From a virus: a stretch of DNA of 64,000 nt. The stretch covers positions 15,495-79,494 of IMG/VR virus record IMGVR_UViG_3300042549_008472; one strand, written 5' to 3'. The position numbers and the translations under genes were made by a program. The notes beneath the pieces are model-generated. The model was given only the letters and a program-made list of their open reading frames with translations, searched no databases and was not told the origin of the DNA. Position 1 is the stretch's first letter; the number at the start of each line of letters is the position of its first letter. Positions 29,882-64,000 of the stretch are shown one piece after another.

Positions 29882-29981
29882 AGTCGAAAAAAGCATCGTA
29901 TTAGACTTAAGCCAAAGATGACTCAGGATGCTCGAAAGACCCGAAAAGGATTAAACCTTAGTGAAGCTGTAAGTCATCTTT
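29881..29981 (+). ncRNA. Candidate structured RNA (multi-stem, possible pseudoknot)
   Basis: AAAGATGACT/AGTCATCTTT 10-bp stem; AAGTC/GACTT stem whose loop AGCATC complements GATGCT. Confidence 0.4.
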
Positions 29982-30017
29982 AAAAAGCCAGTTGATTAAT
30001 TTCTTCTGGTTTTTTTG
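29982..30017 (+). terminator. Rho-independent terminator
   Basis: AAAAAGCCAG...CTGGTTTTTT. Confidence 0.6.
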
Positions 30018-30043
30018 TTTTTTGAAAATAAATAATAAATCTT

Positions 30044-30074
30044 TTGCAGGTTTAAAATATAGTTTGTATATTTG
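30044..30074 (+). promoter_or_regulatory. Promoter of the NAD operon
   Basis: TTGCAG...TATATTTG. Confidence 0.65.
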
Positions 30075-47665: not shown

Positions 47666-48121
47666 TTAATACTGACAAATTTGCCCCGTAAAATTAACAG
47701 TAAAAGGCTGGTTAATATTTAAAGGTTGTCCACTTGTATTCGTGTAAGAGTAAAAGTAAGTATTGCCACTTACCCACGTTCCCGCTGGCTGAAAAGTTTT
47801 TCCTTGAATTACTAAAGTAGCGTTTGGGTTTACGATTGGGACATTTGATTGAAATTTCAAATAAAACCCATTACTTTGACCTTGTCCAGTTACCAAAATA
47901 GGGCAATTTGTAGGCGGTGTGTATTGATAATAAGATGCTGGAACTTTCATAATTTCCCCGTTTCGGATAACTAAAATAGTGTCGTTTACCGTGCCTATTG
48001 AGGCTTTTAGTTTTACGTTTCCATTAACTTCTAGCTTAGCCGTTGGGTTTTTCGTTCCGATTCCAACGTTTTGAGAAATTGCCATTGTTGGCAAAATTAG
48101 TAGTAAAAATAGTTTTTTCAT
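47666..48121 (-). CDS. Secreted protein with Bacteroidota QNVGIGT.NP.AKLEVNG motif
   Basis: Signal peptide plus GIGT motif and beta-rich C-terminus. Confidence 0.55.
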   Translation of the reverse strand: MKKLFLLLILPTMAISQNVGIGTKNPTAKLEVNGNVKLKASIGTVNDTILVIRNGEIMKVPASYYQYTPPTNCPILVTGQGQSNGFYLKFQSNVPIVNPNATLVIQGKTFQPAGTWVSGNTYFYSYTNTSGQPLNINQPFTVNFTGQICQY

Positions 48122-48122
48122 T

Positions 48123-48304
48123 TTAAAAAGGTGTTTCTGATTTCTCAGGTTTTGGAATTAAATTTTTGTACTTTTTTTTTGATTTTTCCGATATCGCATC
48201 TCTGATGAATTTACCTACATCTACGTTATAATATTTCATCTTTTATAAAGTTTTGTGTTGCGTTTCTGAAATTCGTATAACCTTGTTTTAGTATATAATT
48301 TCAT
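48123..48304 (-). pseudogene. Ribbon-helix-helix-like small gene, disrupted
   Basis: MKLYTKT (frameshift) VIRISETQHKTL (TAA) KMKYYNVDVGKFIRDAISEK...PKPEKSETPF. Confidence 0.55.
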
Positions 48305-48337
48305 AATTGTAATACATTTATAGCGATTAGCGATTAG

Positions 48338-48547
48338 TTATGTGATATTTACGCAGTTGACTAAAGCGTACCACATTCCTTTTTCATCATAACAAGTTTC
48401 AGCTTCTTTATTTATTTTAGCTATTTTAAAAATTAAACCGTTGCAATAATTTACTGTATCCCCGACAGAAAAAACATCACATAACAGTGGTTTTGACTTA
48501 TTGCCACATTCGATTAAATTTTCAGTTTGTTTTGTACTTGTATTCAT
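48338..48547 (-). CDS. Cassette gene, hypothetical
   Basis: Start inside hairpin loop, stop TAA inside GTTA core. Confidence 0.7.
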   Translation of the reverse strand: MNTSTKQTENLIECGNKSKPLLCDVFSVGDTVNYCNGLIFKIAKINKEAETCYDEKGMWYALVNCVNIT

Positions 48548-48612
48548 TGTGTTTAATTTAAATATTAGGTCTTATTTTATTGGCAACAAGACAAAGCCAC
48601 AATCCGTTAGCG
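48479..48612 (+). repeat. attC-like site
   Basis: ACATAAC, arm 48487-48506, arm 48581-48600 (17/20 complementary), GTTAGCG. Confidence 0.85.
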
Positions 48613-48867
48613 GTAATTTGCGAGAGCCGTAACTCGTTCCCAAAAAACTTTTTCAACTCTATCCATATCAAAACGGCTACTTTCTTTCATCATTAAAAAC
48701 ATTTGAGTAATAGCATAATCAAGCTCGCCTTTATCTTCTGTTTTTAAGTCAAAGTTTTTTTCTTTATTTTCTCCATAAAAAACCAACCATTTTACTTCGT
48801 CAACGGAAAAACTACCGCTAACAATCGTTTTGTCTAATGGCTTGGCTTGGGTATTATCTGAAATCAT
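48607..48867 (-). CDS. Cassette gene, hypothetical
   Basis: Start inside hairpin loop, stop in GTTA core. Confidence 0.7.
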   Translation of the reverse strand: MISDNTQAKPLDKTIVSGSFSVDEVKWLVFYGENKEKNFDLKTEDKGELDYAITQMFLMMKESSRFDMDRVEKVFWERVTALANYR

Positions 48868-48950
48868 ATTTTTTAAATTTAAAAGTTAGTGTATTTTTGT
48901 AAAGTCTAGTCTTAAATTACGCCACTAGACAAAGCGACCAAACGTTATAA
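48816..48950 (+). repeat. attC-like site
   Basis: CGCTAAC, arm 48826-48841, arm 48921-48936 (14/16), GTTATAA. Confidence 0.85.
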
Positions 48951-49151
48951 GCAAGTGTTACGTTTAGTCCATAAATTAGACAATAACCCAACAAGATTAT
49001 GAACGCAACTTTTTACATAAATCCGCTTCCATTCTACCAACCCAGTTAATTCATCTTCACGCCTCAATAATTCAACTGTTTTTATTCCACTTCTAAAATC
49101 TTGAACAAAACTAATATGTTCCCATTTACTCCATTTTCTTTTTTTAAACAT
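48945..49151 (-). CDS. Cassette gene, hypothetical
   Basis: Stop in GTTA core. Confidence 0.7.
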   Translation of the reverse strand: MFKKRKWSKWEHISFVQDFRSGIKTVELLRREDELTGLVEWKRIYVKSCVHNLVGLLSNLWTKRNTCL

Positions 49152-49192
49152 AATTTTATAATTTAAGTTATTTTTTAATTACCTACACCTGC

Positions 49193-49320
49193 TTATAACA
49201 GCAGTTACACGGCAGTTTGGGCTTTGTTTTTAATTTTCTGTTATTGTTTTTAAGTTCTGTTTCAACTCCGAAAGTATAGGCTTTTTTTACCTCAACCGCT
49301 CGTGTAACTGCAAAACTACG
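49193..49320 (+). repeat. Terminal attC-like site lacking its GTT core
   Basis: TTATAAC, GCAGTTACACG...CGTGTAACTGC (11/11), AAAAC, then TAC instead of GTT. Confidence 0.7.
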
Positions 49321-49341
49321 TAAGCAATAAAATAAAATTGC

Positions 49342-49920
49342 CTACACAATAGGCAATGTCCAATCATTTTTAACGCAATACTCTTTACAAGCATTTCCAA
49401 TCTTTGTAATTATTTCCGCATCTGCTTCTAACATTCCGTGTCCTTTCCATTCATAGGTACTTTGAATTGTATCGGAAATATTACCAATTACTTTAATCAA
49501 ATCTTCTTTTGTCAATTTTTCTAATAAGTTTTCCATCACTAATTTTTTAGATAACTTCTTTTAACATTTCTTTCATGTACAGTAAAACTACCTTTAAGTT
49601 CATCATAGATATGGAAGTACCCGCTGTTAAAGTACCCAAAATACCTACCTCCACCAATTCTGTTTTTTAAAAATATTAAATATTTCATAATGCTTATATT
49701 ATATAATGTTTAAAAATCTCGCCCAAAAATAAGACTGATAAAAAAGAGAACTGTAAAAAATCCAAAACCCTACAAGCTTTAGCCATTTAGGCGTTACAAT
49801 TGTAAAAACTTCTGTAAAAGTTACAAGAGGTACATTAAATAATTTTGTAAAACTTAGTAAATGTAAAACTCCAAATACTAAAGTAAAGGAGAATAAAAAA
49901 TCTGTTGTTGTCATATTCAT
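49342..49920 (-). CDS. Small hypothetical genes (49342-49539; membrane protein 49699-49920)
   Basis: ORFs downstream of the promoter at 49934-49964. Confidence 0.55.
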
Positions 49921-49933
49921 CTGTTTTATACGG

Positions 49934-49964
49934 CAAATATATAACCTATTTTTTAACTGTGCAA
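49934..49964 (-). promoter_or_regulatory. Bacteroidota-type promoter reading toward the cassette array
   Basis: Minus strand TTGCAC...TATATTTG. Confidence 0.65.
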
Positions 49965-50025
49965 GTTATTTGTGTTAAAAAACGTAGAGAGCATAAAAAA
50001 TCCCCCAATTAAGGAGGATTTGGTT

Positions 50026-52158
50026 TTATGCAGAACAGGCTAAACAATCCTCTCCCTCTTTTGGCTTTTCAAAAACAGTTCTTTTATATAAAGATTCAGT
50101 TCCTACTTTTTTCTTTTTTGTGCGAGTGTAATAGACACCCGTTTTTAATCCTTTTTGCCACGCATAAATTAAAGCACTTGAAATCTTAGTAAAATCAGCA
50201 TCCAAGTAATAAGTATTAAAACTGTAAGATTGGTCTATAAAAGGAGCAGATTCTGCTAACATATCAATCCTATGTCTTTGCTTTACTTCATAAGCTGTTT
50301 TATACTTATCTCTTATAGGTTTTGGTATAAATGCAATACTTTGAATACTACCTTCTGCTTGGATAATCATATCTGCCATATCTTTATCCCACAAACCAAT
50401 AGCTTTTAATTCTTTTACTAAAGTATCTTGAACTACTACAAATTCACCTTTATCTAATTTTCTAACATACATCATAGATTGTGGAACTTCAAATCCCTCT
50501 GTGCAAGATAATAAATTAGAACTTGATGCTGTTGGCATTAAAGCTACAAATAAGGTGTTACAAACTGGTTTAGAAGTATCAACATCTAAATCTTTAATGT
50601 CTATTCCATACTTACAGGGGTGTAAATTCCAAGTTGCATAATCTGATTTTTCATAATCTTTAAATTGAATACCGTAATCTTCATAATATCTTTGACTACC
50701 TTTAATTGCTCCTTCATAAATCTGTTTCATTACCTCTTTCATTTCTTTTGGTGCGTCAGGGTGTTCAAAATGTAATCCTCTATCATATAAATACTCTGCT
50801 AAACCAGCAACACCGATTCCAACTGACCTTTGATTTAATCCACCTTTTAAAGCTCTTTCTGTTGGATATTTATTTCTGTCAATTACTCTATTAATATTAT
50901 AACATAGTACCTCTGCCGCTTTTTTTATATCTTTGCAATATGGTAAAGGAATAGAACCTAAAGCGCATTGCCCTGTTTCATCAGGGGTTGCTATGTTGGT
51001 TATTTCTGCACAAAGTTGAGTTGACTTTACAACACCTAAATGTCTTTGCATATTATACTTATTAATAGTATCTATGTAGTTTATGTAAGGTGTTCCTGTT
51101 GAAACTTGTGATGCAATCATTTTTTGCCAAATTTCTAAAGGGTTTATTTTTTCGCCAATACCTAATTCAACTGCTTTATTATAAGCATCTGTCGCTTCTT
51201 GCCCTACTAATTCATATAATCTAATATTATGTTTTTCAAGGTCATAAGGACAAAACAGATAAAAGTCTTTTTGGTTAATTAACGATTCCATAAAGAAATC
51301 ATTGATAACAACTCCTGTGAAAATATCTCTTGTTCTTAATCTCTCATCTCCCTCGTTTAGTCTTAATTCTAAAAACGGAATAATATCTTTATGATAAATT
51401 GGTAAATATATTGAGGCACTTCCAGGTCTTCTGCCCTTTTGATTGTAAAACCTTAAAGTGGCTTGCATCATATCCGCTAAACGAACTACACCACTTGCAA
51501 AACCTTGACCTCCTACTCTTGATTTACTACTTCTTATATTACCAATATAAACACCTATACCAGCACCATTTTTACTTGATTTTGCAATCTCTTTTAAACT
51601 TTCTTGTATTGAATCAAGGTCATCCCCTGCCAACATACTGGAATCACAACTTATAAAAGTTTCAGAACCTGTTCCAGCATTTAAAGTTGTAGGTGTAGCA
51701 AAATTAATTTGTTTTGAAATTAGCATATCAAACATTTCTTGCTTTTCTTCTGTTGTTTCTCCAAAGTAGTCTGCTATTCTTGCATACATTTCTTGCGGAG
51801 TTTCATTTCCTTGTTGATAGGTTTTTTTAAATGTCGAATAGGCTAAATAATCATATTTAATATCTTTGTCTATGTCAAAAGAAAATCTGTTTTTATTTGT
51901 TTTGCGGAAATCTCTTGTTAAGGCAATTCTCGCCGCAAAAAAACTATAATCAGAATCTAATACAATCTTACCCAAAGCCTCGCTAATAATGATTTCATCA
52001 ATCTCATTAGTGGTTATACCATCTTTAATTTGTCCTATAACTGATTGTGTTAACGTATCACAATCTACGTTTAAACCCTCCCCTTGCTTCTTAATTCTGT
52101 TTAAAATTTTGTTTGGTGAAAAGCTTTCCTCTTTTCCGTTAGTTTTTATTATCTTCAT
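50026..52158 (-). CDS. nrdA: Class Ia ribonucleotide reductase alpha subunit
   Basis: ATP-cone, ATPT..NAG, ISC, STQLCAEI, MPTASSS, GLKTGVYY, C-terminal CLACSA. Confidence 0.93.
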   Translation of the reverse strand: MKIIKTNGKEESFSPNKILNRIKKQGEGLNVDCDTLTQSVIGQIKDGITTNEIDEIIISEALGKIVLDSDYSFFAARIALTRDFRKTNKNRFSFDIDKDIKYDYLAYSTFKKTYQQGNETPQEMYARIADYFGETTEEKQEMFDMLISKQINFATPTTLNAGTGSETFISCDSSMLAGDDLDSIQESLKEIAKSSKNGAGIGVYIGNIRSSKSRVGGQGFASGVVRLADMMQATLRFYNQKGRRPGSASIYLPIYHKDIIPFLELRLNEGDERLRTRDIFTGVVINDFFMESLINQKDFYLFCPYDLEKHNIRLYELVGQEATDAYNKAVELGIGEKINPLEIWQKMIASQVSTGTPYINYIDTINKYNMQRHLGVVKSTQLCAEITNIATPDETGQCALGSIPLPYCKDIKKAAEVLCYNINRVIDRNKYPTERALKGGLNQRSVGIGVAGLAEYLYDRGLHFEHPDAPKEMKEVMKQIYEGAIKGSQRYYEDYGIQFKDYEKSDYATWNLHPCKYGIDIKDLDVDTSKPVCNTLFVALMPTASSSNLLSCTEGFEVPQSMMYVRKLDKGEFVVVQDTLVKELKAIGLWDKDMADMIIQAEGSIQSIAFIPKPIRDKYKTAYEVKQRHRIDMLAESAPFIDQSYSFNTYYLDADFTKISSALIYAWQKGLKTGVYYTRTKKKKVGTESLYKRTVFEKPKEGEDCLACSA

Positions 52159-52917
52159 TTAATTATTTCTTAGTTTAAAAAGTTTTTCCACGCTTACCTT
52201 ATTACCACCGATTTTACCATTTGCCGATAAAGAAGATTTTGCTTCCTTTTGCCAAACACATTCAAAATCAGTAGGTGCTTCATATTCACTTACAAAAATT
52301 GTGTGTCCTTGCTTTGCCTTTTCTCTGCACCAAATCCAAAAATTTGAATGATTAAAGTCTTTTGATGTGGAGTATTGTTTAGTTCCTTGATATGGAATGT
52401 CGCAATAAATAATACTGTTTGCGGGTATTTCCAATTCAGTATAATCTTTGTTCTCAAATTGAACACCCCACATCTTTGGTAATTGCTTTTCAATATTACT
52501 TATTGCTTCCTTAATGTAATCTCTTACCGTTCCAATTTTTGTATTTGATTTACCCGAATATCCGCCATCAAAAAATCTACCGTTTGCAGAACCCATCCAA
52601 CCAATCCAACCCACCATATCATCAGTTATATTCGTTTTATGTTCAAATCTTGTTTCTCTGCCGTTGTAAACATCTCTTGCAAGGTCATACAATTCTTTTG
52701 GTATGTCCGTTGGATATTTAATTCCATTTGCTAACCCTTTCCACATTTCAATTAAGTGGTAGTTTTTATCATTGGCAAGCCTATTACCACCTACCTCGCA
52801 AATAGCGTTCATTCCACCTGCAAATGGCTCAATATACCATTGGTCGGTTGTTCTATCTTTTAATATTATCGGCAAAATTTCTTTGGTAAATCGTGCCTTG
52901 CTTCCCATGTATTTCAT
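52159..52917 (-). CDS. Dam-like (D12 class) DNA adenine methyltransferase
   Basis: KYMGSK, EPFAGG, IYCDIPY (DPPY variant), VSEY. Confidence 0.85.
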   Translation of the reverse strand: MKYMGSKARFTKEILPIILKDRTTDQWYIEPFAGGMNAICEVGGNRLANDKNYHLIEMWKGLANGIKYPTDIPKELYDLARDVYNGRETRFEHKTNITDDMVGWIGWMGSANGRFFDGGYSGKSNTKIGTVRDYIKEAISNIEKQLPKMWGVQFENKDYTELEIPANSIIYCDIPYQGTKQYSTSKDFNHSNFWIWCREKAKQGHTIFVSEYEAPTDFECVWQKEAKSSLSANGKIGGNKVSVEKLFKLRNN

Positions 52918-52920
52918 ATA

Positions 52921-54864
52921 TTAAAAATCATCATTAAATAAATCCCCACCCATATTTTCCAATTTTTGATATGCACCGCTCTTACTTTCAAAAAAGTTTT
53001 GTCTTACTACTAAACTAATGTTCGACATAAAATCCAAAGGTTGTGAAACGTTAAATTCTAATGGTAGTTGATAATAATAAAGTAAATTATCAGCAACATA
53101 TTGAACATATTGTAACATCTTCTCTTTTGGTAAACCAATAACATCTCCTTGCTCATAGATAGACTCTACAAATAGTTTTTCAGTGTTATAACAGTCTAAA
53201 ATCATCTCTCTAACTTCTTCTTGTGGTAACTTATAATCATCTTTAATATATTTGTTATAAAGAAGTATTGCAAAGTTCATGTGCATTAATTCATCAATTA
53301 AAATCAATTCATTTGCTTGTCCAAGTCCCGCTAATTGTGGATATTTTTGGCGGAAAAACATTAAAAAAGCAAAAGTAGAACTAAAAGCCATTCCCTCAAC
53401 CAATGAGAACGCAACTACTCTTTGAATTAAACTGCCATTCTCTAACCATTTTTTAGCCCACTTAACTTTTTCAGCTACAATGGGATTGGTCTTAATAGCA
53501 TTAAACATTTCAAACTTTTCTTGGTCATCTTTTATAAGTTGTTCAATTAATCTACTATATGTTTCGCTTTGCCCTGTCAGAATACCATTAAATACCCCTG
53601 CATTTCTAAGAGGCTCGCTAAAACAATAAGTCATCTCGGTCTGTATTTTTTCTATATTTACAACTTTAATTAACTTTTTTCTTTCTACAACTAATTCATC
53701 AGTTTTAATCTGTAACCTTTTAGGATTAAACCCTAACTTAGCGAGCTTTTTAACGTTTGCTGTTGTTATATACAAGCAGTATAACTCTTTTGTTTCATAT
53801 AGTCTGTTAGCTCCTTTACCATCAGGTAATAAACTAAACCCTTCTTTTTTAGCCACTTTTAAATTTGCAGATATTCCTAAAGTAGTTAGTAAAAGTTTTA
53901 CATTTTTTATGAAATCTAAGTTTATTGAAGTATACTGAATAGCAGTAGCTGTCCTTTTTTTATTATAATTTATACAGCCGTCACCATCAAAAAGCCCCTC
54001 TAACCACTCTATTTTTGTTTTTACTGAATAGTTTATTGGTGTAAAAAACTTAGGTTTATTTAATTTATTGGTTAGGTAGAACTTATAAATATCTTTACGT
54101 TCTGCACTTAAATCTCCAAAATAAGGCAAAAGATTCTTCTTTTCTCCATATAATTTAATATATGGTGCATTATTTGTGTAACTACCATCTGCACAAAAGA
54201 ATCCATGTATATAAGGATTTAGTAAAAAATCTTCGTCTTGTAAATCTACAATTGGTAAATTGAAATCATATATAACATCCCCTAAACTTAATGTGTTTGT
54301 TGGTTTTTTTATTAACTTACAATTTTCTGGGTGGTTTTGATTACCATGTCTTATGAACCACTTATGCCCATCTGTACAATCTATATAACTACCATCGGAT
54401 AAGGTAACTCTATATAAATCTTGAACACCTGTTTCAACAATTCTTACCTTTGAAAATTCTTCCCCGTTCCATACATTAACCGATTCTCCGACTAATTTCC
54501 CAATTTTTAATTGCCCTTTATCTGTAAGGATTTTTGTATCAAAACTGACACAATGGACATCTTCTATATATGCTTGATAAACATAGTTAGATTTAATCTC
54601 TTCAATAGAGGAAAATTCTGAAATAATTTCATCGGCTAAATTATCTTGAACTATACTATCAGAAACACCAAAGAAACCTAATAGATGTTTTAAAATAGAA
54701 ACTGTTTTATCAGGTATCCCTTCAAAAGTATCTTTACTTAAATCTAATTCTTCTGCTGTCCAAATAGCTTGTTGTTGTTTTTTAAAATAATCCCACAACT
54801 CTGTGTGGTAGATAGGAAATTTAGTGTTACGTTCACCATTTGTAATATTTAAGTATTTACTCAT
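52921..54864 (-). CDS. nrdB: Class Ia ribonucleotide reductase beta subunit, intein-containing
   Basis: W..EE.DLS.D, IEDVH/SETY, VEG..FS..F, DE.MH, NFFE; start probably MSKYL. Confidence 0.9.
   Translation of the reverse strand: MSKYLNITNGERNTKFPIYHTELWDYFKKQQQAIWTAEELDLSKDTFEGIPDKTVSILKHLLGFFGVSDSIVQDNLADEIISEFSSIEEIKSNYVYQAYIEDVHCVSFDTKILTDKGQLKIGKLVGESVNVWNGEEFSKVRIVETGVQDLYRVTLSDGSYIDCTDGHKWFIRHGNQNHPENCKLIKKPTNTLSLGDVIYDFNLPIVDLQDEDFLLNPYIHGFFCADGSYTNNAPYIKLYGEKKNLLPYFGDLSAERKDIYKFYLTNKLNKPKFFTPINYSVKTKIEWLEGLFDGDGCINYNKKRTATAIQYTSINLDFIKNVKLLLTTLGISANLKVAKKEGFSLLPDGKGANRLYETKELYCLYITTANVKKLAKLGFNPKRLQIKTDELVVERKKLIKVVNIEKIQTEMTYCFSEPLRNAGVFNGILTGQSETYSRLIEQLIKDDQEKFEMFNAIKTNPIVAEKVKWAKKWLENGSLIQRVVAFSLVEGMAFSSTFAFLMFFRQKYPQLAGLGQANELILIDELMHMNFAILLYNKYIKDDYKLPQEEVREMILDCYNTEKLFVESIYEQGDVIGLPKEKMLQYVQYVADNLLYYYQLPLEFNVSQPLDFMSNISLVVRQNFFESKSGAYQKLENMGGDLFNDDF
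53569..54552 (-). mobile_element. Intein (328 aa) with LAGLIDADG endonuclease, ending in Gln
   Basis: H|CVSFDTKILT...CTDGHKW...GFFCADG...GLFDGDG...TYCF...NGILTGQ|S. Confidence 0.9.
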
Positions 54865-54892
54865 TTTTATTATTGATTTAATTATTTTAGAC

Positions 54893-55038
54893 AAAAAAAC
54901 TCCTGCCATTAATTTGCGACAGGAGCATTATTTTTATGTTTCGTGTACCAAGTTCTTAAAAAAGATTCTTTTACACCGCTATCTCGGACAGCCTTTTTAA
55001 TTTGATACAAATATAATTCTTTTATATGATTTGTGCAA
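54893..55038 (-). promoter_or_regulatory. Promoter, ~100-nt structured leader and intrinsic terminator upstream of nrdB
   Basis: TTGCAC...TATATTTG (55038-55008); GCTCCTGTC/GGCAGGAGT stem plus T tract. Confidence 0.55.
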
Positions 55039-55062
55039 GTTAATTAATTTTTAATTTGTTTT

Positions 55063-56719
55063 TTAAAAATAATCTTTCATGTTGTCAATTTTTCCTTCAA
55101 CTCTCTCTAAAATCTGTTTTAATTCCTCTATTGATTTTGCTTCATTAGTTGTTACCATTAAGTATTTAGAGAAAATCTGAGATAATTTAGGATAAAAGTG
55201 AGACTGTCTTTTTACTGTTGGTTCTATTTCTCCTGTCTTTTTATTTTCTTTTTCGCCGATTTCCTCGTGTACTAAAACTAAGCCTCTGTAGCCATCAGGC
55301 TCTAAGTGATAACCGTCTGTTAATTCAATTCTGTCTGTATTCATGTTTTTAAATATTGTGTGCATTTTAGCTATTGTTTAATTAATATCATAATCCATAC
55401 ATAACTGTTCAAAATCTTCGATACAAGCATAGAGCATATCATAGTCATTATAGTGTCTTGGATATTCTCCTATTTCTAAATATTTGATAGTTAAGGCATA
55501 ATCCTCTGAATTTAAATTGCCTCTGTCTGCCAATCTTTCATACTCTTCTTTGAGAGCCTCTGCTAATTTTTGTTTTCTCATCTTACTGTTTTTAATATTA
55601 TTCCCGCGAATATATGGTCTTCACTGTAGTCTTCAAATTCTGTAAAATCGCTCATATATGTTGTTTTTGAGTTTGAATTTCTCACATAGTATTTCTTTTA
55701 AGTCCTCTATTGTGAGAGTTATTTTAGTTTCAGTTGTTGTTTCTGTTTTCATACCTCTCTAGCCAATGTGTAAAGTTATTTAATAAATAATCTGTTGCTA
55801 TTTTACAGTCTTTAATCTGTATAAATTTACCTTTCTTAATTTCTATTTCTTCGTCGGGTAAATACTCTTTCATAAAAGTTCCTTTGTAATTTTCATCTAA
55901 AATAAAATTCGTTCTCCTATGTTAGGTAATCTGTCTTTTATTTTTATGGCTCTGTATAAAATGTCTTTCATAAGCTGTTCTTATTTATAAATTATTTCAT
56001 AGGCTCTCTCCAAACAATAGTGCTCCTCTCCCTCATTTAAGAATTCTCCGTTTTGGTATAGTCTGTGTAAGCCGTAGTCAACATATATTATTTCCAAACC
56101 GTGTAGTTTTAATACGGACTTTTCCATTAAATATGTATCAAATATTTGTTTTAAATCTTCCTCGGCTTTCATATCTGAGTTTCTGTACTTGTCTCTAATG
56201 CTTCCTAAATGATTCATAAGTTGTTGTTTTTATTTCTTCTACAAAGATATATCATTGTTTTTAGTTGTGCAAGAATTTTGTTGATTAATATTCCACATCT
56301 ATAATAAAACCTTCAAAAATATATCTAAAATCTTCTGCTACTTGCTCTAAAAACTGTTCCATAATATCTTCATTGTATTTTCCAGAGGCAGAAACATTGT
56401 ATCTATAACTATCTGTTTTATGGTATTTTAATTTAGCGTCTGTAAACTTTTCTCTCATATTTTTAACTTTTTCCGCGAAAAATTTATAAACTTCTTTATC
56501 TAACATAGGTTCGATAATTTCTCTTACTAAAGAGATGTGTTTAAAAGTTCTCGCTAAAGAACGTTGTCTAAAAAATTCAGCTGAGTCGTTATCATCATCG
56601 AATACAAAAATCTCTCTTAGTTTTATAGCTTCTGTAATACCATTGTGTACTTGGTCTAATATTGTGTAATCTAAGTCTGCATTGACTTCCATTATGAAGT
56701 CTGTGATTTTATTATTCAT
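55063..56719 (-). CDS. Small hypothetical genes (55063-55365, 55378-55581, 55981-56217, 56285-56719)
   Basis: Co-directional ORFs; promoter at 56242-56272. Confidence 0.55.
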
Positions 56720-56888
56720 TTGTTTTTAGTTTTTTCGCCGATAAAAAATAAAGAAACAGAGTAGATGCCTTGGTCTTATTGAGGCACACTTTAATAGCTT
56801 CCGTACTACTCTGAATCTTTAAAATAACAGACTTCAATTAAGTAACCACACTGGGTATCTGTTTTGAACGAGTGACTTAACGACTCTG

Positions 56889-56966
56889 TTTCCCCAGTGT
56901 GACTCGAACACACATGTAACCAAATTACGGTTTCTATTCGTTATGAGCGAAAGCCGATATGGGGAA
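56889..56966 (-). ncRNA. tRNA-like RNA with CAU anticodon loop and no D arm
   Basis: TTCCCCA/TGGGGAA acceptor, GTGTG-TTCGAGT-CACAC T arm, TTCG-CTCATAA-CGAA anticodon arm. Confidence 0.7.
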
Positions 56967-57265
56967 GAATAAAAACAGAAATCCTTGAAGATAGGAACAG
57001 CGATACTTTCATGCACAAGTAATTAGCTTGCAACAATCTATCACCTACATATCGGTGCATTGGGATATACTGTCATACTCAACAAACACAACACTTCTTC
57101 TAATGTTGTAACAATCTTTTCCCATGTAGAGGTTATCCAGTGTTGTAGTGTGCCCCTTATTTATATCCCTTGTCGCAAAGCTTACGGTTATATTCAACTA
57201 CGGGTTTGCGTTTTACTTACACAGGTAAAAATTATTACTTGTTTGTCTTTCTATTTCTGTTTTTG

Positions 57266-57335
57266 TGGCGAGACTAGGTGTCGAACCTAACTCTTCTGCT
57301 ATCCACACAGACGCTTACCCCTAAGCTATCACGCC
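57266..57335 (-). tRNA. Atypical or degenerate tRNA (nominal anticodon GGA, short variable loop)
   Basis: GGCGTGA/TCTCGCC acceptor, GCTT/AAGC D stem, TAGG-TTCGACA-CCTA T arm; non-canonical anticodon loop GTGGATA. Confidence 0.55.
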
Positions 57336-57578
57336 AATTTGTGAATCAAAAAATTTCCGCCGTAGCTAAAAAATATCATCACACGTTAAGACTTATCCAA
57401 ATTGTGTAGGTATCTAAACAGGGTAAACTCTATTCTACATCTGAATGTATTCAAAGTCATAACTTTTTTTAGGTTCAAAACGCGAACTGAAACTCATTTA
57501 ATACTTAACAGAAAAACTGTTTCTAGGTTTGTCCCTAGCACGCATAGACACTATACGTAGTTAAACATCGGTGTTTTG

Positions 57579-57671
57579 TGGGTGAATACAGGAGTCGAAC
57601 CTGCGAACCTTTTGGATGATGAGGTTTCTATGTTTACCTTTCATTGCTTTAACCACTTGCATAATTCCCCC
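57579..57671 (-). tRNA. Degenerate type II tRNA (Tyr/GTA-like)
   Basis: GGGGAAT/ATTCACC, D loop AAGTGGTTAAA, long variable arm AACCT/AGGTT, GCAGG-TTCGACT-CCTGT; anticodon stem poorly paired. Confidence 0.5.
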
Positions 57672-58001
57672 ATTTTACAGCGTGGGCTGTCACTTATCAG
57701 TTTTGGTAGCATCCCTTAGTACCTAATCTTCATCAGGGCAAGGGTCGAATCTTAATTAATCTTCATAATGTGTTACCGTCCATCTTTCTGTCTCATGGTC
57801 GTAAGAACGGCTTCCTTGTACTTCTTCGTTGTAATCTCGTGAATTTTTATCACTGTAAAAATCTTTTGATACTTCTTTCATTTTTTATTTATTTAATTAT
57901 TAATTTTTTGCGCGAAAAAGATAAAAACAGAGGAGAAGACATTATATATTATGCTACCACGTATTACTTAGGTTCACCTACCTCTGTTTCATTCTTCGTT
58001 A

Positions 58002-58032
58002 CAAATGTACAAATAGTTTTTTACTTGTGCAA
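58002..58032 (-). promoter_or_regulatory. Promoter of the tRNA/ncRNA cluster
   Basis: Minus strand TTGCAC...TACATTTG. Confidence 0.65.
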
Positions 58033-58061
58033 ATATTTTTAATCTTTTTTGCCGAAATACT

Positions 58062-58856
58062 TTAAATTTGTCCTAAAGATTCAGCCATTAAAAGTTTTAC
58101 ATTTATCTCTACATTATGTAAAGACTCTAATAAAAGGCACTCCGTAGCACCTCCAAACCAAATTGAGGGTTTGTATAAAAAATCTCTTCCCTCTTTGAGT
58201 AAATACTGTTCTATTTTAAAACAATTATACATACTATTTTCTTGCAAAAATAAAATTTCTTTATTGTATGGTATTTTTGCAAATCTTTTTTCGCAGGACT
58301 CTTCTTTTGTGATACCTATTTTAATGAATTCTTCACTTGTGTTATATAGTTTTACAATGTATACAAATCCTTTTTCTTTTATCAATAACTCTTTATATTT
58401 TTCAAAATATGAAATGGTTTGTTTATTTTTACCATCACCATAACAGTATGCACAACCTACGTTCCCTTTACTTAAAAGTTTATTAGGTGTGTTTTCATAC
58501 TCTATGTTACAACTATTACACTTATATTTTACTCTTGTACCATTATTTACATAATCACCTGTTATAGAAAGTTTATCTTTAAATTTAGTTGTTATACTAT
58601 TTATAAAATTATCCTTATATCCTTTATACTTTTCAGATTCAACTTTTTCTCTAATACATTTTTTACAACCATGTCCTTTAGAGTGCAGATAACAACTTTG
58701 TTTAAAAATACCATGATTAGGACAAATTATTTCAACAAGACACTCAGAATTTATATATTCTGTAAATAAACTATAATCATAGAAATCTTTATGTACCTCA
58801 TTAAAATAATCTTTAATTTTTTGAATAGTTGTATTTTTAAAACTGAATTTTGACAT
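58062..58856 (-). CDS. Zn-finger-repeat GIY-YIG/T5orf172-like putative homing endonuclease
   Basis: ICPNHG.F...GC..C Zn repeats; GFVYIVK...FIKIGIT...FGGATEC. Confidence 0.65.
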   Translation of the reverse strand: MSKFSFKNTTIQKIKDYFNEVHKDFYDYSLFTEYINSECLVEIICPNHGIFKQSCYLHSKGHGCKKCIREKVESEKYKGYKDNFINSITTKFKDKLSITGDYVNNGTRVKYKCNSCNIEYENTPNKLLSKGNVGCAYCYGDGKNKQTISYFEKYKELLIKEKGFVYIVKLYNTSEEFIKIGITKEESCEKRFAKIPYNKEILFLQENSMYNCFKIEQYLLKEGRDFLYKPSIWFGGATECLLLESLHNVEINVKLLMAESLGQI

Positions 58857-59570
58857 CTATTTAAAATATTTTTGATAAATTTTAAAATACTCTGAAATTT
58901 CTTTGCAAACAGATACAACAGAATTTTTTAAATAGTATTCTACATCTTCTTTTTTATATGGTGTATAGATATAATCAATCTGACCCGTTAACCTTAAACA
59001 GTTTTTATCACCTATTATTAAATTATTTCCTTTGCGGTCTAAATGATTTACTCTGCAACCACCGATATCAAAACCTTCTAATTCTCTTTGATAAGCATAC
59101 ATACGAGTTTGATAATACTTTTTTATATCTCCATACTTCTCTTGCATACTTTTAGATGCACCTGTCTTTAAATCTTCTATAAATAACATACTATCAATCT
59201 CGTATTCATGGTCTGAAAACCCCTGTAAAACACAATCTTTAAGTCCAAAAGGTTCAAGGTCAATTACTATTTCAGACTCGTATTTAGAACTTTCATGTTT
59301 AACTAACTGATTAATAGTGTTCATGTCAAATTCAGACAGATTTTTATCCCTCTCGCCATCAGAGAAATAAGTCCCTACAAGATTACCAAAAAATGCAAAC
59401 ATACCACTTTCAGAGGAGTTTCCTAAAAAATATCCTTGTATGTACTGCTCTTTATAATCTTTAAAAGAATTAAGTTGACTATAACTAATTTTCTGTTTAT
59501 TTTTATGTTGTGGGTAATTACCTAATTCATTTTCATACAACTTAGGTAAATTTATTTTAATTGCTTTCAA
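58857..59570 (-). CDS. PD-(D/E)XK (RecB/Cas4-like) exonuclease
   Basis: ISYSQL, GFSD, IEDLKTG, Q..MYA. Confidence 0.75.
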   Translation of the reverse strand: MKAIKINLPKLYENELGNYPQHKNKQKISYSQLNSFKDYKEQYIQGYFLGNSSESGMFAFFGNLVGTYFSDGERDKNLSEFDMNTINQLVKHESSKYESEIVIDLEPFGLKDCVLQGFSDHEYEIDSMLFIEDLKTGASKSMQEKYGDIKKYYQTRMYAYQRELEGFDIGGCRVNHLDRKGNNLIIGDKNCLRLTGQIDYIYTPYKKEDVEYYLKNSVVSVCKEISEYFKIYQKYFK

Positions 59571-60519
59571 ATTCTTCTTTTAATTGGTTTATAATTTCAT
59601 CTATCTGTTTTTGATTGGTTACCTTTCCAAAATTAGAATCAATTTCGGCTAAAGATGCTTTAACTAAATCTAATACAATGTCTTTTTCTTTTTTAGATAA
59701 TTTATTCTTTTTTAAAATTTCCTCTAACTTCTGTTTATCTTTTATTGTAATTACCTTATTTGTATAAATCTTTTGTAACAGAGGTAACTCTTCTGTTTTA
59801 ATATCTTGCCTAAAAATAGGCTCTAAAATATTATCTCCTTTCCAAACTCTTATTAGGTTACTTAATACTGCAACATCTGATTCACAGTAAGATTGTAGCT
59901 CTTTAATTCTACCTGAATAAAAATAGTCAGAAGTTTCATTACCATGCATAATGAGTTTACTTGATGGAATCTTAAAGCACATTGCCAATTCATCTAAAGA
60001 AGTGTTTCCAAAATTTATCCCCTTCCATAATTTCATACTGTCATGTACAGATTTTTCCATATCCCACACTTTCATCCCTACATCATTACCTTGTGTCTCA
60101 GATAAATAATCTTCTGTCTTTAATCCATTTATGAACCACCTTTTTCTTATGTAGGGCATGTCAAACTCAGCGTTATGAAAGACTAAACTCCTGCCCGTGG
60201 ATTTAACTAAAGATATTAAATTAGTCAGTATTTCTTTCTCTTCCCCAACAAAAGACTTAATATGAAGTTCATCATTATGTATAAATCCAACAGATATACA
60301 AGCTATTTTACCCCACTCAGGGAATAATGCCGATTTATCATAATAAAGGCGAATATTTTCTTCATCTGAAAGAAATTCATTAGTCTCTTTATTTCTCTGT
60401 TTCCACTGCCAAACACTATAATATGGGTGGCTTTGGTCAAAAGTCTCTTCTCCTCTGATGGTTTCACAATCTGCAAAAAGAAGTTTTGAGTAATCTAAAT
60501 TTTTAATTTTACTGTTCAT
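59557..60519 (-). CDS. PolB-type 3'-5' exonuclease (DnaQ-like)
   Basis: DCET, GKIACISVG, HNAEFDMPYI, YCESDV. Confidence 0.8.
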   Translation of the reverse strand: MNSKIKNLDYSKLLFADCETIRGEETFDQSHPYYSVWQWKQRNKETNEFLSDEENIRLYYDKSALFPEWGKIACISVGFIHNDELHIKSFVGEEKEILTNLISLVKSTGRSLVFHNAEFDMPYIRKRWFINGLKTEDYLSETQGNDVGMKVWDMEKSVHDSMKLWKGINFGNTSLDELAMCFKIPSSKLIMHGNETSDYFYSGRIKELQSYCESDVAVLSNLIRVWKGDNILEPIFRQDIKTEELPLLQKIYTNKVITIKDKQKLEEILKKNKLSKKEKDIVLDLVKASLAEIDSNFGKVTNQKQIDEIINQLKEEFESN

Positions 60520-60522
60520 CTG

Positions 60523-61314
60523 TTATTTATTTAAAATCATTTCTAAAATGTCTTCTCTGTGTTTTTGACCATTTTTTGTTTGAGCATATTTTGCCTTTGC
60601 CTCCAAAATCGTCCACAGTGGTACAACTTTTAATTCAAAATCATCGTATTTTAACAGTTCATATTTTTGTTTTGGGTCAATTTTTATGTCGGCTTTTAAA
60701 CTATTGATTAAGATACAATCATCATAATCACTTCCGCTAAACCTCTCTTCTCCTCCATCTTCGTCAACCTTAATGCCTTCTTTGGTTAAAAGTTTTGAGT
60801 AAAATGGTAAAATAAAATCGTAATCTCCAACACCTGAAGAAAAACGGTTAAGTCTAACACCCTGTAAATAAAGTGCTATACTTCCTCCAACTATAAGATG
60901 AGGATTCAATTCTTGTAATGCTCTTACAGTTTCTATTTTCATAGCTTTATCAAGCAGTTTTTTCTTTTTATCTGCTTCGATTTTATTTAACTCTTCCTTA
61001 GTTATTTCTCTTAAGAATTTAATACACTTTGCCCCGCTCTTTTTGTCAGAACCATCTTCAAAATTACCTATTATTTCAATCTCAAAAAATCTATTACCGC
61101 CGTTATTTGTATAATAATCAAAAGTATCTTCCAAGTTATTGCAATAATGAAGAGCTGTTTTTGTGCAAAGTTTTAGTTCAGGACTAATTATTATTGAACC
61201 GTCTTTTACTTCTTTAACTTCATTTTTGTCATCAATATAGTAAGTTTTACCCACTTCAAAAGCTACATCTCTGCACTTTAAATTTTTGTCTGTTCCTTTA
61301 TATCCTAATTTCAT
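60523..61314 (-). CDS. Two-domain protein with C-terminal nucleotidyltransferase-like domain
   Basis: N-terminal YKGTDKNLKCRD..FEVGKTY phage domain; VGGSIAL...GDYDF. Confidence 0.5.
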   Translation of the reverse strand: MKLGYKGTDKNLKCRDVAFEVGKTYYIDDKNEVKEVKDGSIIISPELKLCTKTALHYCNNLEDTFDYYTNNGGNRFFEIEIIGNFEDGSDKKSGAKCIKFLREITKEELNKIEADKKKKLLDKAMKIETVRALQELNPHLIVGGSIALYLQGVRLNRFSSGVGDYDFILPFYSKLLTKEGIKVDEDGGEERFSGSDYDDCILINSLKADIKIDPKQKYELLKYDDFELKVVPLWTILEAKAKYAQTKNGQKHREDILEMILNK

Positions 61315-61334
61315 CCTTCTGTTATTTAATTATG

Positions 61335-61365
61335 CAAATATATTCTTTTTATTTTACTCTTGCAA
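61335..61365 (-). promoter_or_regulatory. Bacteroidota-type promoter
   Basis: Minus strand TTGCAA...TATATTTG. Confidence 0.6.
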
Positions 61366-61478
61366 ATTTATTTTTAAATATTTAACCCCTTGTTCAGTTT
61401 CTTTTATTTCTCCTGAAAACTGCCAATCTATGTATTCAGAACCATTTTTACTTCTACAAAATGTATTATATTTCATCT

Positions 61479-62282
61479 TTATATTGGCAAATTTATTTTA
61501 CTTAAAATTTGGTTTGACACGTGAGTATAGACCTCGGTTATTTTTGAGGAGCTGTGGCCTAAACATTTTTGTATGATTCGCAGGTCTGTTCCTGCTTCCA
61601 ATAATGCCGTTGCTTGTGAATGCCTTAGTAAATGAAAATGATAATCTTTACCAATATATTTCTTAACTATTTCATTACAACTTCTGTGCGAATATTTCAA
61701 TCCAAACTGACCACTAAACAAGAACTCTTTTGGTCTACATTCTTTAAAGTATTCGCGCAAAAGATTTAAAACAGTAGAAGATAGAGGAACAAAACGGCTT
61801 TTCCTACCTTTACTATTAACAATATGAATCAACATTCTTTTACTATCAACATTCTCAATTTTTAAATTACAAACTTCACTAACTCGCATTCCTGTAGAGT
61901 AAGCTAAAGTGATAATAGCTTTGTGTTTCAAATTTTCAATTTTTGAAATCTTATCAAGTAAAAAATCTTTATCAATTACTCTTGGTAATTTTTTCTCTGA
62001 TTTTGGTCTTTTAAAAGACACTTTATCATACTTCTTCTCTAATCCGTATTTATATAAAAATCTAATAGAATTTATCACTTGATTTTGTTGAGAAACTGAA
62101 CTAAATTTATAATTATCTAAATAGTTTTGAAAATCTTTAGCATTTAAATGTGATATTTGTTTATCTCCAATACTTTTTACAAAATCCTTTATGTGATAAA
62201 TATAGTTTTCTTTTGTTCGTGGAGAGTAATTAAGATATATAAACTTTTGTTCGCAAATCTTTATAATTTTTTCGTTTAACAT
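61479..62282 (-). CDS. Tyrosine recombinase (Xer/IntI-like), probable cassette integrase
   Basis: N-terminal YSPRT..NY; catalytic GMRVSE, KGRK, HLLRH, LGH, VYTHV. Confidence 0.9.
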   Translation of the reverse strand: MLNEKIIKICEQKFIYLNYSPRTKENYIYHIKDFVKSIGDKQISHLNAKDFQNYLDNYKFSSVSQQNQVINSIRFLYKYGLEKKYDKVSFKRPKSEKKLPRVIDKDFLLDKISKIENLKHKAIITLAYSTGMRVSEVCNLKIENVDSKRMLIHIVNSKGRKSRFVPLSSTVLNLLREYFKECRPKEFLFSGQFGLKYSHRSCNEIVKKYIGKDYHFHLLRHSQATALLEAGTDLRIIQKCLGHSSSKITEVYTHVSNQILSKINLPI

Positions 62283-62332
62283 GTTGATTTTATTAGTGTT
62301 TCAATACAGTTGAGTATATATTTATGTTATAA
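62283..62332 (+). other. attI-like site
   Basis: Hairpin-free segment between the integrase ATG and the first core GTT at 62326. Confidence 0.6.
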
Positions 62333-62692
62333 CACATTTTTTTCCAATGTTACCGCTGAATCAGAAATAACTAAAATTTCTTTATAAGTTTCTTTGTCTA
62401 CTATTAAAGCCATAGGTTTAGTAAATTTCATATGTTGAAAAACCAAATCTGTTATTCCTTCAATCCTGCTTAAATTGCTTTTTGCTATTTCTAAATCTCT
62501 TTCCCATTCTGCAATTAATTTCTTTTGTTTTTGCACTTTTTCAAACGCAAATAATAATACTTCCTTTGCTACATTTTCATCGCCTTGAATTTCATTTACA
62601 ACCCCTGAAAAAGAAGTTAAATCGTCTAAATTAAAACGTGTTATAACATCGGTTTTGTTAAATGCCTTGTTTTGGTCTTTTTCTGTATTCAT
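62327..62692 (-). CDS. Cassette gene, hypothetical coiled-coil protein
   Basis: Start in hairpin loop, stop in GTTA core. Confidence 0.7.
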   Translation of the reverse strand: MNTEKDQNKAFNKTDVITRFNLDDLTSFSGVVNEIQGDENVAKEVLLFAFEKVQKQKKLIAEWERDLEIAKSNLSRIEGITDLVFQHMKFTKPMALIVDKETYKEILVISDSAVTLEKNVL

Positions 62693-62774
62693 TTTGTTTA
62701 ATTTTAAAGTTATTGTTTACTTGTTGCGTTTAGTCTTAAAATACGGCACTAAACAAAGCCGTCAAACGTTACCT
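62641..62774 (+). repeat. attC-like site
   Basis: TTATAAC, arm 62650-62666, arm 62745-62761 (14/17), GTTACCT. Confidence 0.85.
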
Positions 62775-62798
62775 GCAAGTGCTACATTCGTTCTTCGA

Positions 62799-63728
62799 TT
62801 AAACATTTTCGTTAGAAAAATTATTAAAAATTTCCTCCCCTTTTAAAAAAGAAAAAATATAAGCAATTACATCTACTGTCCAGCCATTTCCTAATACTTC
62901 ATATCGTTTAGAAGATGATACCATTTTTGTATAATCTTTTGGAACACTTTGTAGTTTCTCTACTTCGTTTTCTGTTAATCTTCTTATTTCTCCATTAGGC
63001 AAATATGTTTTGGTTAAATGCCTTGCAGCTCCGTGATGTGATGCAGATAAACAAGCCATTAATCCATCATATCTGTAAATATTATCCTGTTGGTGTTTAC
63101 CTGCCTTGTGTCTTATTATTTCATTCTCGCTCCATTTGTAATTTAAGTCAAGTTTTGACTTTTGCTTTTCGGTTAAATAATATTCACTACTTGCTTCTTC
63201 TAAAATATCATTCAAGCAATGATTAAATGTATTTGGAATATTTTCAATTTTTATATTAGTCCAAAATAATCTTGGTCTATTTTGCGGCACAAAAAACTTT
63301 GAGTTTATTTCAATAGGTTCTACTCCTATTGCTTCTGAAATTATATCTTGCCATTCTTTTTTCATTTTTACATTTTCTAATAAAAAATAAGTTGGTTTAG
63401 TTTCATTTAATATTCTTACATATTCCCAAAATAAACCACTTTTTCCATCAAAACCCTCTCCTCTACCAGCATTTGAAAAAGATTGACAAGGACTTCCCCC
63501 TATCAATAAATCTACTTGTGGTAAATCCGTGCCTTTTATTTTCGTAACACTTCCAAGTTGTTTAGTATTTGGGTAGTTTGCCATTGTTATTTTTATAGCA
63601 TCTTTGTCAATTTCAGAAGCAAAGTAATTCTCTACTTCAAGCCCTGCTCTTTCTAACGCTATTTGACCACAACTAATGCCATCAAACAATGATAATACGT
63701 TTATTTTTTCTTTTTTGCCTACACTCAT
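62799..63728 (-). CDS. C5-cytosine DNA methyltransferase (cassette-borne)
   Basis: LSLFDG, GGSPCQ, LLENV, QNRPRLFW, LGNGW. Confidence 0.92.
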   Translation of the reverse strand: MSVGKKEKINVLSLFDGISCGQIALERAGLEVENYFASEIDKDAIKITMANYPNTKQLGSVTKIKGTDLPQVDLLIGGSPCQSFSNAGRGEGFDGKSGLFWEYVRILNETKPTYFLLENVKMKKEWQDIISEAIGVEPIEINSKFFVPQNRPRLFWTNIKIENIPNTFNHCLNDILEEASSEYYLTEKQKSKLDLNYKWSENEIIRHKAGKHQQDNIYRYDGLMACLSASHHGAARHLTKTYLPNGEIRRLTENEVEKLQSVPKDYTKMVSSSKRYEVLGNGWTVDVIAYIFSFLKGEEIFNNFSNENV

Positions 63729-63788
63729 TTTTAATAATTTTTTTGTTTAGTATTTCGTTTAAGTTTCTCGTTAATTAACCGCACCAGC

Positions 63789-63881
63789 AGGTAACAAGGT
63801 ATTTGCAAAATTGCCCATCAACATTTGTGCTTAATTTCAAGTATCTGCAAGGGCAACTTCGCAAATACCCGACCGTTAGTG
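63789..63881 (+). repeat. attC-like site
   Basis: AGGTAAC, arm 63798-63816, arm 63851-63869 (17/19), GTTAGTG. Confidence 0.85.
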
Positions 63882-63887
63882 GCAATG

Positions 63888-64000
63888 CTACCCGAACACA
63901 CGAGCAACTGCCAAATCATAATATTTTACCTCTTTTTCAATTCCAATAAAAGAACGGTTCAACTCTTTTGCTCCTAAACAAGTTGTTCCTACTCCCATTG
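63888..64000 (-). CDS. C-terminus of a beta-class N6A/N4C DNA methyltransferase (partial, cassette-borne)
   Basis: Manual translation: ...MGVGTTCLGAKELNRSFIGIEKEVKYYDLAVARVFG-stop (SAM-binding motif). Confidence 0.8.
   Translation of the reverse strand, partial: MGVGTTCLGAKELNRSFIGIEKEVKYYDLAVARVFG

Follow-up and report, generated by a model that had tools for sequence, protein, structure and literature searches.

Probable integron-like cassette arrays with reversed genes and translated folded sites in an uncultured phage

INTRODUCTION

How are phage genes organized when they end at a recombination core and begin inside the loop of a folded site? This question is raised by a 64,000-nucleotide stretch (the window), bases 15495 to 79494 of the uncultured 79.5-kb viral contig IMGVR_UViG_3300042549_008472, which is present in lake-water metagenomes. 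Two arrays of such units lie 13 kb apart in the window, at 48337-49325 (array 2) and 62326-64000. The latter adjoins a gene for a Xer-like tyrosine recombinase (61479-62282, minus strand), toward which all cassette genes of the window point. Array 2 has no recombinase, and a search to its left for a recombinase remnant or an attI motif found nothing convincing. We consider it probable that these are two integron-like cassette arrays of a Bacteroidota phage, with reversed genes, folded sites that are translated, and a Xer-like recombinase.

In classical integrons, the integrase IntI carries a special domain, genes are read away from the docking site attI under the promoter Pc, and the attC site lies behind the gene. 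Clusters of attC sites (CALINs) are already known from phages and include the methylase cassettes of Polaribacter phage P12002L (Qi et al. 2023, PMC9892861). Full-text literature searches turned up neither phage arrays run by a Xer enzyme nor sites that are reversed and translated, and the layout reported here is apparently undescribed.

RESULTS

Cassette genes of the window end in the core and, in three cases, start in a site loop

Four GTTA motifs, at 48337, 48606, 48944, and 62326, each provide through their TTA the TAA stop codon of a minus-strand open reading frame (ORF): 48338-48547, 48607-48867, 48945-49151, and 62327-62692, respectively. The 10-mers that begin at these motifs recur as perfect reverse complements 139 to 312 nt to the right, at 48476, 48813, 49190, and 62638. 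The whole 79.5-kb genome holds only five GTTA-anchored 10-mer inverted repeats with partners at most 450 nt apart, and four of them are these cassettes. Each R'' box ends in TAAC and is directly followed by an arm, L'', which pairs imperfectly with a second arm, L', ending 5 to 6 nt before the next GTTA. The span from TAAC to GTTA measures 120 to 121 nt in three sites of the window and 79 nt in the methylase cassette.

Array 2 is made of three cassettes, given here in plus-strand coordinates. Cassette A (48337-48609) has its R' box at 48337-48346, R'' at 48476-48485, L'' at 48487-48503, L' at 48584-48600, and its distal core at 48606-48609; it has a long site, and its reversed ORF (48338-48547) encodes a 69-aa product. 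Cassette B (48606-48947), also with a long site, has R'' at 48813-48822, L'' at 48825-48841, L' at 48921-48937, and its core at 48944-48947, and its reversed ORF (48607-48867) matches phrog_27194. Cassette C (48944-49325) has R'' at 49190-49199, an 11-bp L stem formed by 49201-49211 with 49302-49312, and a degenerate distal core, GTAA; its ORF (48945-49151, reversed) starts outside the site.

Beside the recombinase, cassette D (62326-62771) has R' at 62326-62335, R'' at 62638-62647, L'' at 62650-62666, and L' at 62745-62761, followed by a spacer and the core GTTA at 62768-62771. Its minus-strand gene (62327-62692; 121 aa, 16 homologues) has its ATG in the loop of a long site and its stop at the core TAA. 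The next cassette (62768-63878) has a short site (63786-63878; the 79-nt span given above) and boxes at 62768 and 63786-63795 that are complementary at 9 of 10 positions. It carries a minus-strand C5 cytosine methylase ORF (62799-63728) that starts outside the site and stops 31 nt inside the cassette. This gene also contains a 14-bp perfect inverted repeat (63329-63342 with 63609-63622) that has no GTTA core. The last cassette (63875-64000) runs off the end of the contig and includes, by translation, the C-terminal end of an amino-methylase-like ORF on the minus strand; its stop, at 63888, lies 13 nt from the core G, a distance that recurs across the family (see below).

Three of the ORFs begin at ATGs (48547, 48867, and 62692) that lie in site loops, between the TAAC core of R'' and the next GTTA. 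In translation, the L'' arm and the R'' box give the peptides GNKSKPLLCDV, AKPLDKTIVSGS, and KAFNKTDVITR. Cassette A uses another reading frame of the L'' arm than cassettes B and D do, and we therefore place the conservation of the arm in the nucleic acid rather than in the protein. Rechecking in the sequence bore out every position that the original prediction had given for ORFs, GTTA cores, and starts, including the four stops at the core TAA (48338, 48607, 48945, and 62327), the three starts inside hairpin loops, and the reading of their N-terminal peptides as translated arm and box. Its claim that the cassette genes are reversed holds in the window as well. Orientation alone is not special there, however, because the minus strand carries every gene from about 35 kb to 64 kb.

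The reversed, translated layout is a family trait

We surveyed the layout in 118 distinct cassettes from 45 related viral contigs. Sites were found as TAAC, two arms with at least 14 of 17 positions paired, and then GTTA, with exact cores; this strict finder overlooks variant cores, so that all counts of sites and cassettes are lower bounds. The ORF of a cassette was called as the longest one. In 116 of the 118 cassettes, the longer ORF shares the strand of the recombinase gene and points to it, which extends the reversal beyond the window. The median ORF covers 71% of the cassette, versus 28% on the other strand.

Both gene ends are tied to the sites. The stop codon falls within 20 nt of the crossover G in 91 of 118 cassettes, with peaks at +1, where the core TAA itself is the stop (22 cassettes), and at +13 (28 cassettes). 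The frame in which an ORF terminates is that of the core TAA in 64 of 103 cases. The earlier proposal that the core supplies the stop is upheld by these counts. The start lies inside the site for 36 of the 58 long sites, 10 of the 14 mid-sized ones, and only 4 of the 45 short ones, from which it follows that the extra ~40 nt of the long sites are an initiation region and leader. The 20 nt upstream of in-loop ATGs are 52% A. Among 40 credible in-site starters, the core GTT is read as a codon (Val) in 30, and ends such as ...NISDVSGS recur. The frame is largely fixed at both junctions, with the core GTT read as Val and the core TAA in frame, and in long sites the L'' arm and R'' box are predicted from these reading frames to be translated as a leader of 15 to 25 residues.

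Sites pair and covary, and mismatches single out the minus strand as the folding strand

In most of 51 viral loci, sites are tiled in one orientation beside the recombinase, with up to ten per locus, and the site finder detected almost none in the opposite orientation. The sites fall into two main size classes, of about 80 nt and 118 nt. Among 93 pairs of adjacent sites, picked without using complementarity, the six variable bases after GTTA fully complement the next R'' in 40 (43%), compared with 1.2% for shuffled partners. Complementarity of the boxes extends over positions 1 to 10, is interrupted by a conserved AxC mismatch at position 11 (3%), and is restored at positions 12 to 15. This is the architecture of attC sites, namely, imperfect R''-L''...L'-R' hairpins in which the start of a cassette complements its own R''.

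Covariation was used for structure in place of fold energies. An RNAalifold alignment of 55 long sites contains 24 pairs, 18 of them with compensatory changes, and one G.U pair that is invariant in 55 of 55. On the plus strand, non-Watson-Crick positions are AxC rather than G.T in 193 versus 36 cases in the L stems and 120 versus 4 in the R stems. Because these mismatches are so overwhelmingly AxC, the minus strand is the strand selected to fold. The invariant G.T pair on the minus strand corresponds to an AxC mismatch on the other strand and is a candidate signal for strand choice.

Rfam returned only tRNA matches and no family matching the cassette sites. One 149-nt cassette of a related contig (L012) is nearly site only, and its loop carries a tRNA-like T-arm (GGTTCGACTCC-type); ARAGORN found no tRNA in this cassette.

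The recombinase is Xer-like and adjoins a conserved docking site

The recombinase gene (61479-62282, minus strand) encodes 267 aa with Pfam matches to Phage_integrase and SAM_4, and the catalytic motifs R..HxxR..H..Y are visible in its alignments. The top NCBIfam match is XerA_Arch (171 bits, below the cut-off), and the top PDB match is XerA of P. abyssi (4a8e, E 1e-30). The IntI models TIGR02249 and NF011946 are matched in two stretches, with scores below their cut-offs. In an alignment to VchIntIA (IntI4, 2a3v), residues 179-209 of the query stand opposite residues 181-259 of the chain, with about 48 residues absent at the IntI-specific domain. By its catalytic motifs, size class, and best similarity, the enzyme is assigned to the Xer type. 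The original prediction had set the units beside integron cassettes; they do behave as integron-like cassettes, but the term integron applies by analogy only, the recombinase having no IntI-specific domain.

Relatives of the recombinase (47 to 91% identity) occur on 51 viral contigs. Genomes of 185,579 species contain them on 13 contigs, all from metagenome bins, only two of which carry arrays.

Upstream of the recombinase start lies an attI-like docking site (62283-62326, plus strand) that ends in TATATATTTATG/TTA, where the slash marks the crossover position. A conserved ATATAWWATAG/TTA is found within ~45 nt of the recombinase start in 15 loci, beyond which the sequences diverge, and blastn matches of relatives to the window stop at about 62321, just short of the G at 62326. 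Like an attI, the site adjoins the recombinase gene and provides a G/TT junction, and it is the predicted place of cassette insertion.

Sites and leaders are shared between unrelated bodies

Similar site DNA is found in 74 cassette pairs, with identity reaching 90% across ~130 nt that take in the ATG and leader, and none of these pairs has detectably related bodies. In alignments, the similarity starts at the TAAC boundary and does not continue past the GTTA of R''. A search with the 69-aa product of cassette A recovered true body homologues and at least 14 leader-only proteins, whose first 22 to 25 residues are 82 to 96% identical to cassette A and whose remainder is entirely different; one is named a YoeB-like toxin, and another has a PF04448 domain. 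The suggestion that the peptide signature could be used to find further cassettes is borne out by this search.

Because the same site and leader module precedes unrelated bodies, the site acts as a portable translation start, which supports the earlier proposal that the site supplies the start. Further, a C5 methylase of a related contig (L008) has a site-encoded extension ahead of its Pfam domain; the methylase of the window has no such extension and has its own start behind a short site. Members of the cassette B family share the body and the box-encoded ends VSGS and ANYR-stop, and their leaders vary in sequence and length even at 96 to 99% body identity. One homologue of B (L066), from a prophage-like element of Flavobacterium psychrophilum, is in the same cassette type, with identical R boxes. 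When metagenome contigs were scanned for exact copies of the 5' end of the cassette B body, none matched.

Whole cassettes also recur. A 377-nt cassette is 96% identical between two contigs (L042 and L049) from G/TTA to G/TTA, with different neighbours on both sides, and the 149-nt cassette of L012 is present as an exact duplicate (reverse-complement coordinates 3302-3451 and 3693-3845). In contigs of related strains from four other lake samples, the match to the window ends at 48340, 48605, 48810-48814, 48940-48954, and 49205, all of which are core positions. Another strain has only the body of cassette C (48940-49205), at ~90% identity and within unrelated flanks. Two other lake samples contain a more abundant relative (depth 93 versus 5) that is ~90% identical up to 48340 (window 48111-48340) and continues past that point with a different cassette (GTTA, then GCAGTA...). 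Since this relative switches cassette at 48340, array 2 varies between co-occurring strains.

Promoter-like motifs lie on the distal side of the cassettes

The minus strand carries five copies of a motif, TTGCAC, 17 to 21 nt, and TAnnTTTG, which we take to be the Bacteroidota promoter consensus and which points to a host in the Bacteroidota. They lie ahead of gene blocks at 49934-49971, 55008-55045, 56242-56279, 58002-58039, and 61335-61365, with consensus positions at 49964-49934, 55038, 56272, 58032, and 61365. The first of these is upstream of array 2, and the last is just downstream of the recombinase gene. A motif scan of the window found no consensus promoter on the plus strand at the docking-site side. 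TAnnTTTG is present in 8 of 116 sites, which equals the background density, and there is no early promoter inside the site module. These positions are consistent with distal-side promoters and with transcription through the cassettes into the recombinase gene. The 44 nt between the stop of the first cassette gene and the recombinase start (62283-62326) contain no promoter motif, and the recombinase is probably cotranscribed with the most recently inserted cassette.

Around the cassettes, the genome also encodes ribonucleotide reductase and two methylases in addition to the 267-aa recombinase. The gene for the small subunit of ribonucleotide reductase (52921-54909) contains an intein with a LAGLIDADG endonuclease domain, its Pfam matches being split around residues 155-428. 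A tRNA-Ser (GGA) and a weak match to a tRNA-Sec model (23.8 bits, against a threshold of 47) are found at 57265-57335 and 57580-57671 of the window. A megablast of 46-64 kb against cultured phages returned zero matches.

DISCUSSION

A proposed cassette cycle

Read on the plus strand, a unit of this system consists of G/TTA with six variable bases, the gene body, and the complement of the six bases with TAAC (R''), followed by a spacer of 1 to 2 nt, the L'' arm, the loop, the L' arm, a 5- to 6-nt spacer, and the G of the next G/TTA. Once a cassette is excised as a circle, pairing of its R boxes would lengthen the L stem and yield an attC-like folded site. The minus strand, predicted to fold well, also bears the genes, giving a polarity that is the reverse of that of classical cassettes. 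The loop of a long site (~118 nt) holds an A-rich initiation region and the ATG, with the leader fused to the body, and the gene stops no more than ~20 nt from the crossover, in many cases at the core TAA. Distal promoters would drive transcription through the cassettes into the recombinase gene, and the recombinase would swap cassettes at the G/TT core of folded single strands.

Alternative explanations

The strongest competitor holds that the modules are mainly mRNA leaders, with the start codon in the loop and an effect on translation rate, that they are shuffled by homologous recombination between modules, a route that has been put forward for T4 PeSL elements, and that the nearby recombinase is an unrelated phage integrase. 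Several observations are in its favor: the strand that folds well is the mRNA strand and has the invariant G.U pair, the start codon sits in the loop with an A-rich region upstream, homology breaks at either end of the module, array 2 has no recombinase, and recombination is deduced from sequence comparison. A leader RNA would have no need, however, for the cassette-specific inverted repeats of 10 to 15 bp that bracket the bodies, and the short sites share the stems yet have no start codon. Further, arrays start at the conserved G/TTA junction beside the recombinase in 15 loci, and a whole cassette recurs with its G/TTA junctions. We regard this explanation as unlikely.

A still less likely account is that these are ordinary bacterial integron cassettes (a CALIN) acquired by the phage and moved by the IntI of the host, the gene reversal being incidental. 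The published phage attC clusters speak for it, as do cores that overlap the GTTRRRY consensus. So does phage P12002L, whose published site attC1 (30005-30056 of NC_028924, our L068) shows the exact anatomy of the family described here; in the locus (29237-30056), the gp35 methylase gene lies reversed, on the opposite strand, and is bracketed by the complementary boxes GTTAGGCAC and GTGCCTAAC. In the published work, this site had been predicted on the other strand and was the sole site to fail in an IntI1 assay (PMC9892861). Our site finder detected one site in P12002L and overlooked the published attC1. Elsewhere in the same phage (32491-32695), a GTTA core provides through its TAA the stop codon of gp42 (32693). 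An incidental acquisition is at odds with a dedicated Xer-like recombinase that adjoins the arrays together with its own conserved docking site, with the scarcity of relatives of that enzyme among genomes of 185,579 species (just 13 contigs, all metagenome bins), with reversed polarity in 116 of 118 cassettes, and with site-encoded leaders in frame with the bodies.

Finally, the idea that the modules owe their similarity to paralogy of gene 5' ends and that the inverted repeats arose by chance in an AT-rich genome (~30% G+C, with 10-mer inverted repeats at most 450 nt apart at 97 positions when any sequence is allowed) can be dismissed, given that four of the five GTTA-anchored pairs are these units, that 43% of adjacent site pairs are fully complementary versus 1.2% after shuffling, that 18 stem pairs covary, and that the L'' arm is framed differently in cassette A than in B and D. 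A PeSL-like terminator-promoter repeat based on a GTCTAGT/ACTAGAC hairpin was also considered and was dropped given the long-range L''/L' pairing and the complementary R boxes.

Several points weigh against the reading of these units as integron-like cassettes. Breakpoints occur at the R'' core as well as at the R' core, which a single G/TT crossover does not predict; such a crossover leaves a body joined to the site in which it starts, as in the cassette shared by L042 and L049. The core of site C is degenerate, with GTAA instead of GTTA, and longest-ORF calling has probably produced some spurious in-site starts among those with TTG or a very short leader. The recombinase does not have the domain with which IntI binds extrahelical bases in classical integrons. 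In single-sequence DNA folds of whole sites, the L stem is the best structure, but the z-scores are not significant relative to shuffles, which we attribute to the long loops (36 to 85 nt). Because the strand that folds has the sense of the mRNA, some of the conservation could serve RNA, and the sites may have an additional RNA role. Starts, translation, and recombination are all predicted from sequence.

The first of these points bears on mechanism. Leaders shared by unrelated bodies, the same bodies behind different leaders, and the breakpoints at R'' lead us to conclude that exchange or cassette formation also takes place at the R'' core. Possible routes are recombination of both strands, a cassette-making step of the debated chromosomal-integron kind, and microhomology-based exchange.

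Comparison with known systems

Like integrons, the arrays have a recombinase gene with an adjoining docking site followed by a one-way tiled array; sites that fold into R and L stems and have an unpaired spacer, a variable loop, and a G/TT crossover core; cassette starts that complement their own R''; similar sites on unrelated genes; and methylases as cargo. They differ in that the enzyme is Xer-like and does not have the IntI-specific domain by which integrons are strictly defined, and in that the genes lie on the folding (bottom) strand and point toward the recombinase. A Pc promoter at attI cannot drive genes that read toward the recombinase, and the cassettes are not the promoterless units, read away from attI under Pc, of the strict definition. 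Further, the R stem of the phage sites is 10 to 15 bp long rather than 7, their strand asymmetry derives from a G.T pair versus an AxC mismatch, and they are translated.

Site-specific recombination on a folded single strand by a Xer enzyme has a precedent in the CTX phage, which is integrated by XerCD on a single-stranded hairpin with exchange of one strand pair. The likeness lies in the Xer-type enzyme and the hairpin; there, the whole genome enters the host dif site, whereas the arrays described here are made of small cassettes. The T4-type PeSL stem-loop modules, reportedly described by Arbiol et al. in 2010, are said to flank small variable early genes and to be linked to modular shuffling. 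They reportedly carry a promoter and are thought to act via homologous recombination and small circles, without a recombinase, a docking site, or complementary cassette ends. The modules described here contain no early promoter of the PeSL kind.

The closest parallel for a translated site is ORF-11/ORF-18 at attI1 of class 1 integrons, where the site has an initiation region and an ATG and a small ORF runs across the crossover point (PMC8876359). This ORF can end at a stop in the core site of the cassette and aids expression of the inserted cassette (PMC8876359). ORF-11 belongs to one fixed site and serves the first cassette only, mostly by translational coupling, whereas in the phage system every long site has its own start, with the arm fused in frame to the cassette protein.

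What the arrays may do for phages

Leaders and bodies appear to be reassorted independently of each other at the two cores. This raises the tentative idea, which we rate as doubtful, that long sites are plug-in translation adaptors, such that any in-phase insert between two cores would be expressed at once. If true, the phage would possess a machine with which to try out foreign or novel coding sequence, and new genes could be born in this way. The specific proposal that captured DNA could become a gene finds no support here; the bodies of cassettes A, B, and D are conserved protein families.

The family departs from three rules of integrons while keeping the logic of the folded site: its enzyme is of an ordinary Xer-like kind, its genes lie on the folding strand, and its sites double as start, leader peptide, and stop. 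The origin of cassettes has long been debated for integrons, and here whatever makes a cassette must join site and body in frame. In practice, site-encoded leader peptides provide a search key with which to locate cassettes in metagenomes. The arrays also raise the question of whether phages use them to swap counter-defence genes such as methylases, which they may allow.

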